Sequence record: OR780565.1
Reading direction: 5' to 3' (one strand)
Length of the DNA: 64,000 bases
Source of the DNA: Escherichia phage DCP2
Shown: positions 4,648-16,359 of the stretch, one piece after another
How positions within the stretch are numbered: position 1 is the stretch's first letter
Layout of the letters: every line of letters begins with the position of its first letter
Notes under the pieces: generated by a model
What the model was told of the DNA's origin: nothing
Seen by the model: only the letters and a program-made list of their open reading frames with translations
The model's database searches: none
Made by a program: the position numbers and the translations under genes

Positions 4648-6420
4648 TTAATTAACTCCAGTCGCATCAAATACACCGGGAGCAGTCGTGCTCGTTACGG
4701 GTGTCATATTATGAACGACAGTATTTTTCTTAATAACATTATTAGTATTATTGATCGAAGGAGATGCTTGTTGAGCAGGAGCTTGCTGTGCTTTGTTCTT
4801 TTCTATTACCTGGACTTGTTTTGCTTCTGGCGATTTAGCAGAAGTTTCAGGTTTGGCATTAGGCTGATTTTTCTTGAGCTCTTGATATGTAGCATCAATT
4901 TTAGAAAATCTAGCAGCAAGTTCTTTTTTAACTGCCGGTGAATTATTTAAATCCGGGTCATCCATCCGTTTTTTAAGGTCTTCATAGGCAGCTTCAACTG
5001 ATTTAACCGTTGAGTCTTTACTCATATCAGCTGAATCAGCATATTTTTCAAAGCGAATCATTGCGGCACGGGCTTCATTAGCCTTCATTAAAGCATTTTT
5101 TCTTTCTTCAGGTGAAAGTTGCTTTAATTTTTCTTCTTCTGCTGCACGTTCTTCGTCAGTAGTTAGTGCTTCTTTATTATCAACACCACGAATCCAGTTA
5201 GATGCACGAGTTTTCCAGTTCGCAATTTTATCTAGTCCTTCTGCTATTGGACCGAGGTCTCCATTCATTCGTTTATCTTGATAATTTGCTACTTTTTCTT
5301 GGTCTTCTTTATTGAGAGATGCTCCAGTAGAATTTTGGAAATTTTCTAGTGCTCTTCCTTCTACTTCATCAGCGGTATCCTTCATACCAGGAATAACTCG
5401 AAGAATTGCCGCAGATAATTTAGCCATACCTAATTGGATAAGTTCACCTAAATTATAAAGAACCTTTCCAAGCCCTTCTACAATAGCTACTGTCAAACCG
5501 CCCCAATCTCCCGCTTCCCAGAATTTTTTAATTTCATCAATAGAACTAAAGATGCTCTGTAATAAAGGACCCCATGTTCCGGTTTCGCTAGAGAATTTAG
5601 TAAAGTCTGTACTAAACAAATCCCAAGCCTGTGAAAATTTATCTGACCAATATTTAAAATGGACCATCAACAGGTCTATTCCAACAACAACAGCCAATAT
5701 CATTGCAGTCATTTTAGCAGCTTCAATAGCAGCACTGACGGTGTACTTAAATAACATGCTTGATATTTTATCAGTAATTGAAATGGATTTCTTAAATCCA
5801 AAATCAACGGTCTTTGTTAATTTATCTAAAGCTTGAGATAATTTTAAGTTAAATGCGTCTTTTTTCTGTTTTTCTTCTGGCGATTCTTGTTTGGGTTCAA
5901 CTGGCTGAGGGGTAGGGAAAAAATCAGCATCAGGATCATTATTAACTGCTTCAGGAGCCGGTAATAAAGGACCCACAGATTCAGCTGTATCGTCCTCAAC
6001 AACTTTAACAGGAATAGCGCTTTCAACCGTAGCTAAACTAGTTCCTGTTTGTTGAATTCCGGCTGTCTGAATTTTTTGCTCTAGTAAACTTGTTAATTTA
6101 TCTAATTTGCTCCCGAGCGATTCACCGATTTCTTTATTAATATTGTTGCCAATTTCGACAGTTTCAGCAATTAACTCAGAACCAGCAGTAGTATCACTTA
6201 CTGCGCTTTCTACATTGTCAATTGCTCCAATTATTTCATTCGATTTTTCTTCGACAGTTTGAGCAATTAGTTCAGAAGCAGCTTGAGCATCATCCAATTT
6301 CGTAGATATATCGTTAAGTCCAGATAAAGTGTTGGAAGCGGATTTAGCCGCTTCCTGTGTTGGTTTATTATCTGAAATAACTTTTCTACGCATCGTTTGC
6401 ATTTCTTGTGGCTTTTTCAT
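4648..6420 (-). CDS. 29: gp29 baseplate hub / tail length determinator
   Basis: 590 aa, same as T4 gp29; extended coiled-coil-like low-complexity central region; synteny. Confidence 0.85.
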   Translation of the reverse strand: MKKPQEMQTMRRKVISDNKPTQEAAKSASNTLSGLNDISTKLDDAQAASELIAQTVEEKSNEIIGAIDNVESAVSDTTAGSELIAETVEIGNNINKEIGESLGSKLDKLTSLLEQKIQTAGIQQTGTSLATVESAIPVKVVEDDTAESVGPLLPAPEAVNNDPDADFFPTPQPVEPKQESPEEKQKKDAFNLKLSQALDKLTKTVDFGFKKSISITDKISSMLFKYTVSAAIEAAKMTAMILAVVVGIDLLMVHFKYWSDKFSQAWDLFSTDFTKFSSETGTWGPLLQSIFSSIDEIKKFWEAGDWGGLTVAIVEGLGKVLYNLGELIQLGMAKLSAAILRVIPGMKDTADEVEGRALENFQNSTGASLNKEDQEKVANYQDKRMNGDLGPIAEGLDKIANWKTRASNWIRGVDNKEALTTDEERAAEEEKLKQLSPEERKNALMKANEARAAMIRFEKYADSADMSKDSTVKSVEAAYEDLKKRMDDPDLNNSPAVKKELAARFSKIDATYQELKKNQPNAKPETSAKSPEAKQVQVIEKNKAQQAPAQQASPSINNTNNVIKKNTVVHNMTPVTSTTAPGVFDATGVN

Positions 6421-11105: not shown

Positions 11106-12617
11106 TTATAAATTAACTGTTTTCATTACGTAATTAAATTTTTCATCTGCGTAGCGCTGAATACGATCAATGCCATGTTTTAAAAGATAGTTCAAATGAA
11201 CGTATTTCTTTTTCGTATTAGCAGATTTTGGCTTAACACCGCAATCATCAATGAGGTCCCAGACCGTTGCGATTGTTTTAGAACCATGCTTACGTAATAC
11301 GCGACCTATTGTTTGCAATACAATAATTTTAGATTTAACACCGTGTGCTAAAACAACGTGATGCAGATTTTTAACTGAAATACCAGTAGAAAATACACCA
11401 TAACTAGCTACTATAATTATTCCTTTACCGTTTTCAGCTAATGTTTTCATTACATTACGGGTTTCGGTATCAACTTCCCCTGATACGTAATAAACTTTAT
11501 CGTATTCATTTTTAATTAAATCGAAAATAGCTTTACCATGTGATACATGCTTAAACATGACAAAAGCGTTTTCATCTTTTTGTGCAAGTTTAATAGCTAA
11601 TTTAGCAATCCATTTATTTCTTTTACTGAGTCCAGTAATAATTTTTATTTCTTCTTGGTAAGTTTTTCCCTTTAATTTAGTAGTGAACTCATCGGGATAG
11701 CGAAGAAAAATACTATTAATTTTTAGCTCAGTTACTTGTCCATCTTCCATCAATTTAGAAGTCGTTACTGGCTTAAATATTTCACCAAACATTCCAACAT
11801 ACTGCATGATATTAGCTTTGCCATCACGTAATGAACCTGATAGACCGAATTTGAACATGCAGTTATTTAAACCTGATATGATAGATGAAATACTTTTTCC
11901 TGTAGCAAGATGGCATTCATCATTCATCATCATTCCAAACTGCGAGAACCATTCTTTTGGTTGTTTTACTACAGTTTGCCATGTACCAACAATTACCGGT
12001 GCATCATTTTTATATTTATCATCTTTTGATGCTCCGCCGCCGATTTTCTTTATCATTGCATGACTGAATAAACGATAATCAACAAAGTCATCAGCCATCT
12101 GAGTTGTTAAAGCGGTTGTTGGAACAATGATAAGAATTTTACCTTCATAATTTTCCAAATAATAACGTGCAAGCAAAGCTTGAATTAAAGATTTACCTGC
12201 GGATGTTGGAAGATTAAGAATTCTGCGACGATTAACTAATCCTTCGAACACTGCATCTTTTTGATACCAGTGCGGTTCAATTCTTTTATTTCCTGAATAG
12301 ATTTCTAATTTAGAAAGCCATTCATCAAAATCTTTTCTTGATAATTCTTCTTTTTCGTTAATTTGCGGGTCAATCCAGGCTTTATAGCCAAAATTATCAC
12401 AGAACTTTTTAATTTGCCCGACTAAGCCGAATGGAAGAAGGCGATTATAATCTAAAAGACGGATTCGTCCATCCCAGTGACCATATTTGTATTTCGGATT
12501 AAAACGATACCCGTCAGCTTCAAAGCTAAAGAAATCACGGAGTTCATGAAATGTACTTTCTTCACAATCAATTCTCACGTGACTAAAATCATAAAAATGT
12601 ACTTTAATGTCAGTCAT
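11106..12617 (-). CDS. uvsW: UvsW DNA/RNA helicase
   Basis: 503 aa; SF2 helicase motifs (PTSAGKS Walker A, DECH box); synteny. Confidence 0.85.
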   Translation of the reverse strand: MTDIKVHFYDFSHVRIDCEESTFHELRDFFSFEADGYRFNPKYKYGHWDGRIRLLDYNRLLPFGLVGQIKKFCDNFGYKAWIDPQINEKEELSRKDFDEWLSKLEIYSGNKRIEPHWYQKDAVFEGLVNRRRILNLPTSAGKSLIQALLARYYLENYEGKILIIVPTTALTTQMADDFVDYRLFSHAMIKKIGGGASKDDKYKNDAPVIVGTWQTVVKQPKEWFSQFGMMMNDECHLATGKSISSIISGLNNCMFKFGLSGSLRDGKANIMQYVGMFGEIFKPVTTSKLMEDGQVTELKINSIFLRYPDEFTTKLKGKTYQEEIKIITGLSKRNKWIAKLAIKLAQKDENAFVMFKHVSHGKAIFDLIKNEYDKVYYVSGEVDTETRNVMKTLAENGKGIIIVASYGVFSTGISVKNLHHVVLAHGVKSKIIVLQTIGRVLRKHGSKTIATVWDLIDDCGVKPKSANTKKKYVHLNYLLKHGIDRIQRYADEKFNYVMKTVNL

Positions 12618-12667: not shown

Positions 12668-13348
12668 ATGATAGATAAAGATTATATTGCAGAGCTGAAG
12701 GCTCTTGATGATAATAAAGAAGCTAAAGCTAAATTAGCTGAATATGCTGAACAGTTTGGTATAAAGGTCAAAAAGAATAAATCTTTTGATAATATCGTTA
12801 TTGATATTGAAGAAGCCCTCCAGAAGCTCGCTAGTGAACCTATGCCAGAGACTGATGGGTTATCTATTAAAGACTTAATTGATGCTGCTGATGCCGCAGA
12901 AGGGTTAAAATATGACGATGAAGAAGTCAATCCAGAAGCAGCACTTCTGATTGATTCTCCGGTTAAATCTGACATTAAAATTGAAGTAGTAGAAACGGAT
13001 AAAATTCCTGAAAATACCGATGTTTTGATTGAAGATACTCCTTTTGTTGAAGAAAAATTCGAACAGGCTGTAGCTGAGATTATTGAATCTGAAAAGCCGT
13101 CTGTATTTACTCTTCCGGAAAACTTTAGTCCGAATCTTCAGCTGATTGGAAAAAATCCAGGATTCTGCACTGTTCCTTGGTGGATTTATCAGTGGATTGC
13201 TGAAACTCCGGATTGGAAATCTCACCCAACTAGTTTTGAACATGCGTCGGCACACCAAACTTTATTTAGCTTAATTTACTACATTAATCGTGACGGATCA
13301 GTTCTAATTCGTGAAACACGCAATTCTTCTTTCGTAACATTAAAATAA
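12668..13348 (+). CDS. inh: Inh-like protein (inhibitor of prohead protease)
   Basis: 226-aa acidic protein between uvsW and hoc; assignment is by position and size from memory. Confidence 0.55.
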   Translation: MIDKDYIAELKALDDNKEAKAKLAEYAEQFGIKVKKNKSFDNIVIDIEEALQKLASEPMPETDGLSIKDLIDAADAAEGLKYDDEEVNPEAALLIDSPVKSDIKIEVVETDKIPENTDVLIEDTPFVEEKFEQAVAEIIESEKPSVFTLPENFSPNLQLIGKNPGFCTVPWWIYQWIAETPDWKSHPTSFEHASAHQTLFSLIYYINRDGSVLIRETRNSSFVTLK

Positions 13349-13357
13349 GGATAACTT

Positions 13358-14776
13358 ATGGCTTTTACAGTTGATATAACTCCTAAAACACCTACTGGAG
13401 TTATAGATCAGACTCAGCAGTTTACTGCTACACCCAGTGGTCAAACTGGAGATGGACCTATTACATATGCTTGGACTGTAGATGATGTTCCACAGGAAGA
13501 AACATCTGCAACTTTTAGTTATGTACTAAAAGGACCTGCCGGTCAAAAAACTATTAAAGTAGTTGCAACAAACCCAGTTCCAGATACTGATGCTGAAACA
13601 GCTGAAATTAGTACAACTATCACAGTTCAAAATAAGACACAGACAACTACCTTAGCTGTAACTCCTAATAGTCCTCCAGAAGGAGTAATCGGAACAGCTG
13701 TTGAATTTACTGCTGCCTTAGCTTCACAGCCATCGGGCGCATCTGCTACGTATCAATGGTACGTTGACGGTTCTCCTGTGAGCGAAGCAACTTCTGCTAC
13801 ATTCAATTATACTCCTACTACAAGCGGAGTTAAAACAATTAAGTGTGTAGCTCAAGTAACCGCGGCAGATTATGATACAAAGGAAGTTACTTCTAATGAA
13901 GTGTCACTGACTGTTAATAAAAAGACGCAGACAACTACCTTGGCAGTAACTCCTGATAGTCCTGCTGCTGGAGTAATTGGAACCCCGGTTCAATTTACTG
14001 CTGCCTTAGCTTCTCAACCTGATGGAGCGTCTGCCACGTATCAGTGGTATGTAGATGATTCACAAGTTGGTGGAGAAACTAACTCTACATTTAACTATAC
14101 TCCAACTACAAGTGGAGTAAAAAGAATTAAATGCGTAGCCCAAGTAACTGCAGAAAATTATAATGAAAAGGAAGTTACTTCCAATGAAGTATCATTGACA
14201 GTTAATAAGAAGACAATGAATCCACAGGTTGCATTGACTCCTCCTTCTATTAATGTTCAGCAAGATGCTTCGGCTACATTTACTGCTAATGTTACTGGCG
14301 CACCTGAAGCAGCACAAATTACTTACTCATGGAAGAAAGATTCTTCTCCTGTGGAAGGGTCAACTAACGTATATACTGTTGATACCTCATCTATTGGAAG
14401 TCAAACTATTGAAGTTACTGCTGTCGTTACAGCAACTGACTATGATAGTAAAACAGTTAAAGCCACAGGTCAAGTTCAAGTGACTGATAAAGTTGCTCCG
14501 GAACCAGAAGGTGAATTACCTTATGTTCATCCTCTTCCACATCGTAGCTCAGCTTATATCTGGTGCGGTTGGTGGGTTATGGATGAAATCCAAAAAATGA
14601 CTGAAGAAGGTAAAGATTGGAAAACTGAAGATCCAGATAGTAAATACTACTTGCATCGTTACACTCTTCAGAAGATGATGAAAGACTATCCAGAAGTTGA
14701 TGTTCAAGAATCGCGTAATGGATACATCATTCATAAAACTGCTTTAGAAACTGGTATCATCTATACCTATCCATAA
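13358..14776 (+). CDS. hoc: Hoc outer capsid protein with four Ig-like domains
   Basis: 472 aa; repeated roughly 97-aa Ig-like modules plus a C-terminal capsid-binding region; position as in T4. Confidence 0.85.
   Translation: MAFTVDITPKTPTGVIDQTQQFTATPSGQTGDGPITYAWTVDDVPQEETSATFSYVLKGPAGQKTIKVVATNPVPDTDAETAEISTTITVQNKTQTTTLAVTPNSPPEGVIGTAVEFTAALASQPSGASATYQWYVDGSPVSEATSATFNYTPTTSGVKTIKCVAQVTAADYDTKEVTSNEVSLTVNKKTQTTTLAVTPDSPAAGVIGTPVQFTAALASQPDGASATYQWYVDDSQVGGETNSTFNYTPTTSGVKRIKCVAQVTAENYNEKEVTSNEVSLTVNKKTMNPQVALTPPSINVQQDASATFTANVTGAPEAAQITYSWKKDSSPVEGSTNVYTVDTSSIGSQTIEVTAVVTATDYDSKTVKATGQVQVTDKVAPEPEGELPYVHPLPHRSSAYIWCGWWVMDEIQKMTEEGKDWKTEDPDSKYYLHRYTLQKMMKDYPEVDVQESRNGYIIHKTALETGIIYTYP
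13631..14212 (+). repeat. tandem duplication of a 291-bp Ig-domain unit inside hoc
   Basis: Units 13631-13921 and 13922-14212 encode near-identical KTQTTTLAVTP...EVSLTVNK modules. Confidence 0.8.
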
Positions 14777-14781
14777 TCTCA

Positions 14782-14795
14782 GGGGCTTCGGCCCC
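14782..14795 (+). terminator. GGGGC-TTCG-GCCCC hairpin plus T-rich tail
   Basis: UUCG tetraloop hairpin directly after the hoc stop. Confidence 0.65.
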
Positions 14796-14864
14796 TTTCT
14801 TCATTTTAAAAGCACACAAAACGCAATCAGAAAACGATGTATATAATGGCACCAACTCGATAAC

Positions 14865-15354: not shown

Positions 15355-16359
15355 ATGTTTAAAAAGTATAGCAGTCTTGAAAATCATTACAATTCTAAAT
15401 TCATTGAAAAACTTTATAGTTTAGGATTGACTGGCGGCGAATGGGTAGCTCGTGAAAAGATTCATGGCACAAATTTCTCACTGATTATTGAACGCGATAA
15501 AGCAACTTGTGCTAAACGTACTGGACCGATTCTTCCTGCTGAAGATTTCTTTGGGTATGAAATTATTCTAAAGAATTACGCTGATTCCATTAAAGCAGTA
15601 CAAGATATTATGGAAACTTCAGCAGTTGTATCTTATCAAGTCTTCGGCGAATTCGCTGGACCTGGCATTCAGAAGAATGTCGATTATGGTGATAAAGATT
15701 TTTATGTATTTGACATTATTGTTACTACCGAAAGTGGTGATGTGACTTATGTCGATGATTATATGATGGAATCATTCTGTAATACATTTAAATTTAAAAT
15801 GGCTCCACTTTTAGGTCGCGGTAAATTTGAAGAGCTTATTAAATTGCCAAATGATTTAGATTCTGTCGTCCAAGATTATAATTTTACAGTAGACCATGCT
15901 GGATTAGTTGATGCAAATAAATGCGTTTGGAATGCCGAAGCAAAAGGCGAAGTATTTACTGCTGAAGGATATGTATTGAAACCTTGTTATCCTTCTTGGC
16001 TTCATAATGGAAATCGTGTAGCCATCAAATGCAAGAATTCCAAATTTAGTGAAAAGAAAAAGTCTGATAAGCCTATTAAAGCTAAAGTTGAACTATCAGA
16101 AGCTGATAACAAATTGGTGGGAATTTTAGCTTGCTACGTTACACTGAACCGAGTAAATAACGTTATTTCTAAAATTGGTGAAATTGGTCCAAAAGATTTT
16201 GGAAAGGTGATGGGACTAACTGTTCAAGATATTTTGGAAGAAACTTCTCGTGAAGGTATTACTCTAACTCAAGCAGATAATCCTTCTTTGGTTAAAAAGG
16301 AATTAGTTAAAATGGTACAAGATGTACTTCGTCCGGCTTGGATTGAATTGGTAAGTTAA
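15355..16359 (+). CDS. rnlB: RNA ligase 2
   Basis: 334 aa, same as T4 Rnl2; nucleotidyltransferase KxHGT motif (REKIHGTNF) near the N-terminus. Confidence 0.9.

Follow-up and report, generated by a model that had tools for sequence, protein, structure and literature searches.

Hoc, the capsid display platform of phage T4 and the basis of the phage-adherence-to-mucus model, has 376 residues in T4, whereas the hoc gene of Escherichia phage DCP2 encodes 472. We asked how this longer protein arose and how its extra part relates to the Hoc proteins of other phages, working in a 64,000-nucleotide stretch of DCP2 (accession no. OR780565.1), hereafter called the window. A preliminary description had proposed that Hoc gained a fourth Ig-like domain in this phage through an in-frame tandem duplication of 291 bp, leaving near-identical units whose differences could be counted to date the event.

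Identity of the gene and domains of its product

The gene is covered by one open reading frame, which is intact (Table 1). In a phmmer comparison, its product matched T4 Hoc (PDB accession no. 5vf3, chain Z; 376 aa) with an E value of 1e-213. The match falls into two stretches, residues 1 to 106 and 187 to 472, the latter aligning to T4 residues 91 to 376 with 573 bits, and 96 residues are left as extra. Since T4 Hoc aligns in two stretches around one 96-residue unit, the excess corresponds to exactly one domain-2 unit, in agreement with the two lengths given in the preliminary description. The 12.6- to 16.4-kb region of the window has the canonical T4 arrangement, with the gene order uvsW, inh, hoc, 24.3, 24.2, rnlB, and this order agrees with the annotated neighbors of hoc in the T4-type records that we fetched (T4, RB68, NBG2, and others). 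The inh-hoc-24.3-24.2-rnlB context and the near-identical T4 Hoc C-terminal domain together support the identification of positions 13358 to 14776 as hoc of a Tequatrovirus (T4-like) phage.

Table 1. Features of the hoc locus in the window, with coordinates, strand, and the evidence for each
Feature	Coordinates	Strand	Description and evidence
uvsW	11106-12617	minus	Window ORFs
inh	12668-13348		Window ORFs; 5' neighbor of hoc
hoc coding sequence	13358..14776	+	472 aa + stop; ORF list; phmmer to T4 Hoc; 99.9% nt identity to annotated hoc of phage ECO07P4
Ig-like domain 1, D1 (aa 1-90)	13358..13627	+	Aligns to T4 Hoc residues 1-90; beta-sandwich in AlphaFold2 model, pLDDT about 80-93
Linker homology, D1/unit-1 boundary	13622..13639	+	ACAGTTCAAAATAAGACA; TV-QNK-T; read from sequence; start of Tandem Repeats Finder array
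Repeat unit 1 (aa 91-186), domain-2-type Ig/PKD-like, type A	13628..13915	+	Tandem Repeats Finder; repeat search; clade of first units
Linker homology, unit-1/unit-2 boundary (repeat junction)	13910..13927	+	ACTGTTAATAAAAAGACG; TV-NKK-T; read from sequence
Repeat unit 2 (aa 187-282), domain-2-type Ig/PKD-like, type B, T4 domain 2 orthologue	13916..14203	+	Identity and dS to T4 domain 2
Linker homology, unit-2/D3 boundary	14198..14215	+	ACAGTTAATAAGAAGACA; TV-NKK-T; read from sequence; end of Tandem Repeats Finder array
Ig-like domain 3, D3 (aa 283-378)	14204..14491	+	Aligns to T4 Hoc domain 3; Pfam; beta domain in AlphaFold2 model
C-terminal capsid-binding domain (aa 379-472)	14492..14773	+	Aligned to T4 Hoc, 96.5% nt identity
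Terminator-like hairpin with T-run	14781..14806	+	Directly 3' of hoc stop codon; consensus scan
Two small ORFs	between hoc and RNA ligase 2		Window ORFs
RNA ligase 2	15355-16359		Window ORFs

The hairpin that follows the gene, placed at positions 14781 to 14796 without its flank, lies at the same place as an annotated terminator in NBG2 and fPS-2. No copy of the late promoter sequence TATAAATA was found on the plus strand just upstream of inh or hoc, and a sigma-70 scan returned no more sites than shuffled sequence did. Every segment of the 472-aa protein is acidic, with a pI of 4.56 for the whole, and acidity has also been described for Hoc homologues. Another observation was that positions 5000 to 29000 of the window (24 kb) find their best public match, at 97.0%, in phage CJY920, whereas hoc, taken alone, reaches 99.9% identity in ECO07P4 and ECO07P5, two phages isolated on Escherichia fergusonii. 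Relative to its sequenced relatives, the genome is a mosaic.

Matches to the Pfam families PKD, Ig_3, I-set, and Ig_2 exceed the cutoffs; the best PKD match covers residues 195 to 267, within unit 2, and the matches on D3 start at residue 289 and extend to residue 355 (Ig_3) or 374 (I-set). An AlphaFold2 model, built from a 42-sequence alignment (mean pLDDT of 83.5), features four consecutive all-beta domains at about residues 1 to 90, 91 to 186, 187 to 282, and 283 to 376 with pLDDT values of about 90, and is poor at the C-terminal domain, where pLDDT drops below 50 at residues 380 to 403 and 469 to 472 and reaches about 50 to 67 between them. The top PDB matches of this model in Foldseek are four-Ig chains, namely, Sidekick Ig1-4, Dscam Ig1-4, and ICAM-5 D1-D4. 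The predicted fold thus supports the presence of four Ig-like domains in the 472-aa Hoc, as the preliminary description had it.

A diverged tandem repeat with a period of 96 codons

Tandem Repeats Finder reported a single array at positions 13622 to 14215, with a period of 288, 2.1 copies, 79% matches, 0 indels, and a score of 752, and a second repeat search aligned positions 13622 to 13909 with 13910 to 14197 at 78%. When the gene was compared with itself at shifted offsets, the sole peak was at 288 nt, where 528 bases match; no other offset in the range of 270 to 309 gave more than 421. Two adjacent in-frame copies are thus present as proposed, while their period is 288 nt, or 96 codons, instead of the 291 bp and 97 codons put forward earlier. 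The additional codon per unit in that description, like the count of 2.1 copies, arises from a third, partial occurrence of the linker (TV-NKK-T).

Cut in codon phase (Table 1), the two units show 62 base differences in 288, of which 39 are in third codon positions, and 20 residue differences in 96. Their identity is thus 78.5% in DNA and 79% in protein, and they are not near-identical. They lie head to tail, in frame, and without a spacer, and are closer to each other than to the other domains of this Hoc. Given that the protein identity of the units to the flanking domains D1 and D3 is only 37 to 42%, compared with 79% between themselves, they are true paralogues of domain 2, and the outcome that would have refuted the preliminary description, units no more similar to each other than to the flanking domains, does not hold. 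The residues in which they differ cluster at unit positions 48 to 57 and 80 to 84, and 16 of the 20 are not part of a predicted beta strand (Fisher P = 0.0007), a distribution that indicates diversified loops on a conserved Ig core.

A linker of roughly 18 nt recurs at all three Ig boundaries. The junction between the units consists of a linker of the D2/D3 type (NKK) joined to a start of the domain-2 type (TQTTT), and exact runs of 14, 22, and 15 nt are common to both units.

Kinship and age of the two units

Next, we compared the units with each other and with T4, estimating synonymous and nonsynonymous divergence by the method of Nei and Gojobori. Between unit 1 and unit 2, dS is 0.87 and dN is 0.127 (dN/dS of about 0.15). 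Unit 2 is much closer to T4 domain 2 (dS of 0.25, dN of 0.068, and 89.9% nucleotide identity) than unit 1 is (dS of 0.72, dN of 0.139, and 78.8% identity). The remaining segments differ from their T4 counterparts by a dS of 0.30 and a dN of 0.132 (D1), 0.35 and 0.098 (D3), and 0.19 and 0.004 (C-terminal domain). Because a dS of 0.87 between the units stands against 0.19 to 0.35 for orthologous segments of this hoc and T4 hoc, the split of the units is considerably older than that of this hoc allele from T4's, and counting differences to date a recent duplication loses its basis. Purifying selection has maintained both units. A separate contrast in constraint is seen inside hoc when it is compared with T4, the capsid-binding domain (positions 14492 to 14773) having a dN of 0.004 and the Ig-like domains (positions 13358 to 14491) a dN of 0.07 to 0.14.

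Phages BP32 and LH2 each have a single domain 2. That of BP32 shares 99.0% identity with unit 1 of NBG2 and 95.5% with unit 1 of this phage, and that of LH2 shares 96.5% with unit 2 of this phage. Unit 2 is the orthologue of T4 domain 2, and unit 1 that of the single domain 2 of phages such as BP32. Since identity between genes varies from domain to domain (between the window and NBG2, 0.896 in D1, 0.944 in unit 1, 0.983 in unit 2, and 0.993 in D3), hoc itself is a recombinational mosaic.

To obtain an overview of these relationships, we built a neighbor-joining tree of the 288-nt units in hoc DNA from 21 phages; this tree has no outgroup, the Mosigvirus-like domain 2 having been rejected as a root because it is too divergent for reliability, and it summarizes mosaic sequences. 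One clade comprises all first units and the domain 2 of the single-copy genes of BP32, Nami, HX01, fPS-2, F27, AREG1, and IMG4, and the other comprises all later units together with the domain 2 of T4, RB68, LH2, and IMG2. The two units of this phage hence represent two deep lineages, each of which also occurs as a single-copy domain 2 elsewhere, and this speaks against a recent duplication in this phage. We then typed the units of the retrieved protein clusters and the window after removal of the two linker residues, as A when they were closer to other first units and as B when they were closer to later ones. Type A was assigned to 36 of 37 first units and type B to 39 of 44 later units; the 77 single-copy units (31 A and 46 B) lie along a continuum that includes intermediate forms. 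By these assignments, the first copy is almost always of type A and later copies of type B, with single-copy genes holding A, B, or a mixture. In every multicopy gene sampled, the units are 74 to 84% identical in DNA, and no young arrays, i.e., arrays with near-identical units, were seen among the multicopy hoc genes sampled. In the protein clusters P0061 (472 aa) and P0066 (567 aa), the later units are much more divergent, with 41 to 57% identity to unit 2 of the window, and therefore unit types beyond A and B exist.

One to four copies of domain 2 in T4-type phages

In a megablast search, hoc was matched by 678 phage records. The genes of ECO07P4 and ECO07P5 reach 99.9% identity along the entire 1419 nt, and full-length matches at 90 to 97% come from dozens more, including OES_C-1/2/3, BF15, NBG2, PP01, slur phages, teqskov, and pSs-1. 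As a junction-specific BLAST search joins noncolinear pieces and cannot part one-unit from two-unit genes, we used an evenly spaced sample instead. Among 60 megablast records taken in even steps down a ranking made with the 472-aa query, 14 have a match of 1419 to 1425 nt in one piece, the hoc of slur03 is longer, and most of the others have the 1131-nt T4 form. With about 15 of 60 records holding a hoc of 1419 nt or more, roughly a quarter of the sampled T4-type hoc records carry more than one unit.

Hoc length in the relatives follows the number of units, 376, 472, 568, and 664 aa corresponding to one, two, three, and four of them, and the retrieved protein clusters of 376, 472, and 567 to 570 aa hold one, two, and three domain-2-type units. 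Four tandem units, and thereby six Ig-like domains, are found in slur03 (locus L037; LN881728.1, positions 31 to 2025), whose hoc has 1995 nt and encodes 664 aa; this is the longest T4-type Hoc among those that we examined. Three units (568 aa) are present in UGKSEcP1 (L030), which has five Ig-like domains, and in a metagenome contig (L031). A scan of IMG/VR yielded 21 loci, with only four complete T4-type genes and a fifth that is truncated (L013), and further hoc genes were therefore taken individually from GenBank.

A second, Mosigvirus-like Hoc lineage (N terminus MAYTVSIAPL...; IMG/VR contigs L005, L006, and L011, with hoc from position 1501) has undergone an independent duplication of domain 3, seen in its forms of 471 to 472 aa, the duplicated domains being identical at 72 of 90 residues in L006 and 43 of 90 in L005, and it includes a 282-aa Hoc without domain 2. 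Domain gain and loss are therefore apparently confined neither to domain 2 nor to the Tequatrovirus lineage. The records of HX01 (L025) and vB_Eco_F27 (L035), with hoc at positions 301 to 1431, are assigned to Mosigvirus, but their hoc is of the Tequatrovirus type along its full length, with about 87% nucleotide identity to that of the window throughout. In RB69, on the other hand, the match covers only the last 273 nt of hoc, at 96.7%. The comparison suggests an exchange of the Ig string across genera, the boundary of which would lie at the conserved C-terminal domain.

How the array may have arisen

We read this gene as an ordinary Tequatrovirus hoc whose two-unit allele is one state of a population-wide polymorphism of one to four copies, not as a fresh duplication (probability of about 0.9). 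T4-type phages replicate through recombination, and domain-precise, in-frame gain or loss by unequal exchange would therefore be the simplest explanation of the series from one to four copies. Copy number would change by unequal homologous recombination during mixed infection or self infection; to judge from the anatomy of the gene, likely exchange sites would be the linker at each Ig boundary and conserved sequence within the units. Were the D1/D2 linker to recombine unequally with the D2/D3 linker, the product would carry just the NKK/TQTTT junction that we observe.

The layout of the units, in frame and spacerless, and their much greater similarity to each other than to the flanking domains are also what one would expect if domain 2 had been copied once in this phage or its immediate ancestors, recently enough to be dated by counting differences. 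We nevertheless consider this highly improbable: the dS between the units is about three times that between this hoc and T4 hoc, with no sign of a several-fold faster synonymous evolution in unit 1; each unit is much closer to a single domain 2 of another phage (BP32 or LH2) than to its neighbor; and the allele is common to dozens of independent genomes. A gain of the fourth domain in this phage is not supported either: the allele is common in public genomes, and the sequence data would be as compatible with a loss in T4-like three-Ig alleles as with a gain here. While tandem repeats are a known source of assembly error, a repeat collapsed or expanded by the assembler has next to no probability in this case, since 62 differing positions out of 288 allow reads to place the units unambiguously, the frame is intact, and the same 1419-nt gene occurs in many independently sequenced phages; the independent genomes led us to reject this explanation.

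Within the polymorphism that we favor, the array might have been assembled in a mixed infection by unequal crossing-over of two single-copy hoc alleles that had diverged beforehand, in which case divergence would precede the apparent duplication. Both A and B circulate as single-copy alleles, hoc is mosaic domain by domain, linker homology is present at each boundary, and no sampled multicopy gene has units more than 84% identical in DNA. Repeated assembly should also yield B-A arrays, yet all but one of the typed first units are A, and the same data are expected from duplication, divergence, and subsequent loss; we regard this origin as a good possibility, if short of even odds. Alternatively, the multiunit array could be ancestral, with three-Ig alleles such as T4's arising by unit deletion and single A, B, and chimeric domains 2 being unequal crossing-over products of an A-B array. 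This would account for single-copy domains 2 of A, B, and intermediate form and for the near identity of the BP32 domain to NBG2 unit 1, and the fixed order suggests that the array originated once and was not put together repeatedly. However, more distant Hoc lineages mostly have three Ig-like domains and duplicate another domain in their four-Ig members, some single-copy units read B then A along their length (e.g., P0038), as would not be expected from simple deletion in an A-B array, and the unit tree is unrooted, so that we hold this alternative tentatively and put it distinctly below even odds. Taken separately, the fixed A-first order seems to argue for a single origin of the array, and the lack of near-identical units for either assembly from diverged alleles or instability of young arrays.

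It is tempting to speculate that the one to four domain-2 copies, in which A keeps the first place and the units differ by 16% or more in DNA, constitute a selected, recombination-driven polymorphism of length and avidity that fits the capsid fiber to mucosal or surface niches, and that unit divergence is itself selected, stabilizing the array against the highly active recombination of the phage; we consider this unlikely.

Consequences expected for the capsid fiber

T4 Hoc forms a 180-Å fiber of four domains, with 155 copies per capsid and the C-terminal domain at the center of gp23* hexamers (PMC10385173), and its capsid-binding domain comprises residues 281 to 376 (Fokine et al. 2023, PMC10385173). 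Because the C-terminal domain of the 472-aa Hoc is almost unchanged from that of T4, the same attachment, with one molecule at the center of each gp23* hexamer, is to be expected. From the T4 dimensions (180 Å for four domains), the fiber would be about one Ig domain, or about 45 Å, longer, and it would display two domain-2-type surfaces with different loops. This added surface could change reach, avidity, or ligand range toward mucin glycans or other surfaces. In the Hoc of PNJ-9, domain-2 residues S183/L184/T185 have been reported to bind fucose on MUC2 (Fu et al. 2024, PMC11853027); the 472-aa Hoc has the tripeptide SLT twice, at residues 183 and 279, and one or the other might be a counterpart of this site. 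By analogy, it is plausible that domain number tunes adherence or display, and the natural alleles with three, four, five, and six Ig-like domains offer a ready series on fiber length and module number versus adherence, antigenicity, and display.

Relation to known Hoc proteins

Compared with T4 Hoc, the protein studied here is encoded at the same locus between inh and 24.3, and its D1, unit 2, and D3 are orthologous to T4 D1, D2, and D3; T4 Hoc differs in having no type-A unit 1 between D1 and its D2, and hence three Ig-like domains instead of four. The 472-aa Hoc proteins of ECO07P4/ECO07P5, OES_C-1/2/3, BF15, NBG2, PP01, slur02/04/13, teqskov, and pSs-1 share the two-unit layout at 90 to 99.9% nucleotide identity over 1419 nt, and their differences from the gene in the window are allelic only, with identity that is mosaic from domain to domain. 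GenBank records with this layout mostly annotate the product as Hoc, Hoc-like head decoration, or PKD domain protein.

Variation in domain number is well documented for more distant homologues. Fokine et al. (2023, PMC10385173) described 650 Hoc homologues with one to ten Ig-like domains, ten being reached in Hoc of Serratia phage Muldoon (PMC10385173), and the Hoc of PNJ-9 has two (Fu et al. 2024, PMC11853027). These two, like the Hoc proteins of slur03 and UGKSEcP1, share with the present protein a conserved C-terminal anchor and a variable Ig string and differ from it in copy number. The Hoc-like protein of Klebsiella phage PMBT63 has four Ig-like domains, 46% identity to T4 Hoc, and an inserted domain at residues 109 to 209 (PMC13435897); it belongs to a distant lineage. 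The module present twice is domain 3 in the Mosigvirus-like lineage and domain 2 here. Our literature search, which included four-Ig and duplicated Hoc proteins and whose coverage is incomplete, yielded no explicit account of a domain-2 copy series in Tequatrovirus, of the A/B order, or of homology among the linkers.

Public databases thus already list the four-Ig protein as Hoc, and Hoc proteins that differ in the number of their domains, four included, have been published. The repeat is real but is a common allele of a well-known gene, to which the present analysis adds descriptive detail: a corrected period, an age for the copies, a rule for the order of A and B, a range of one to four copies, and homology of the linkers.
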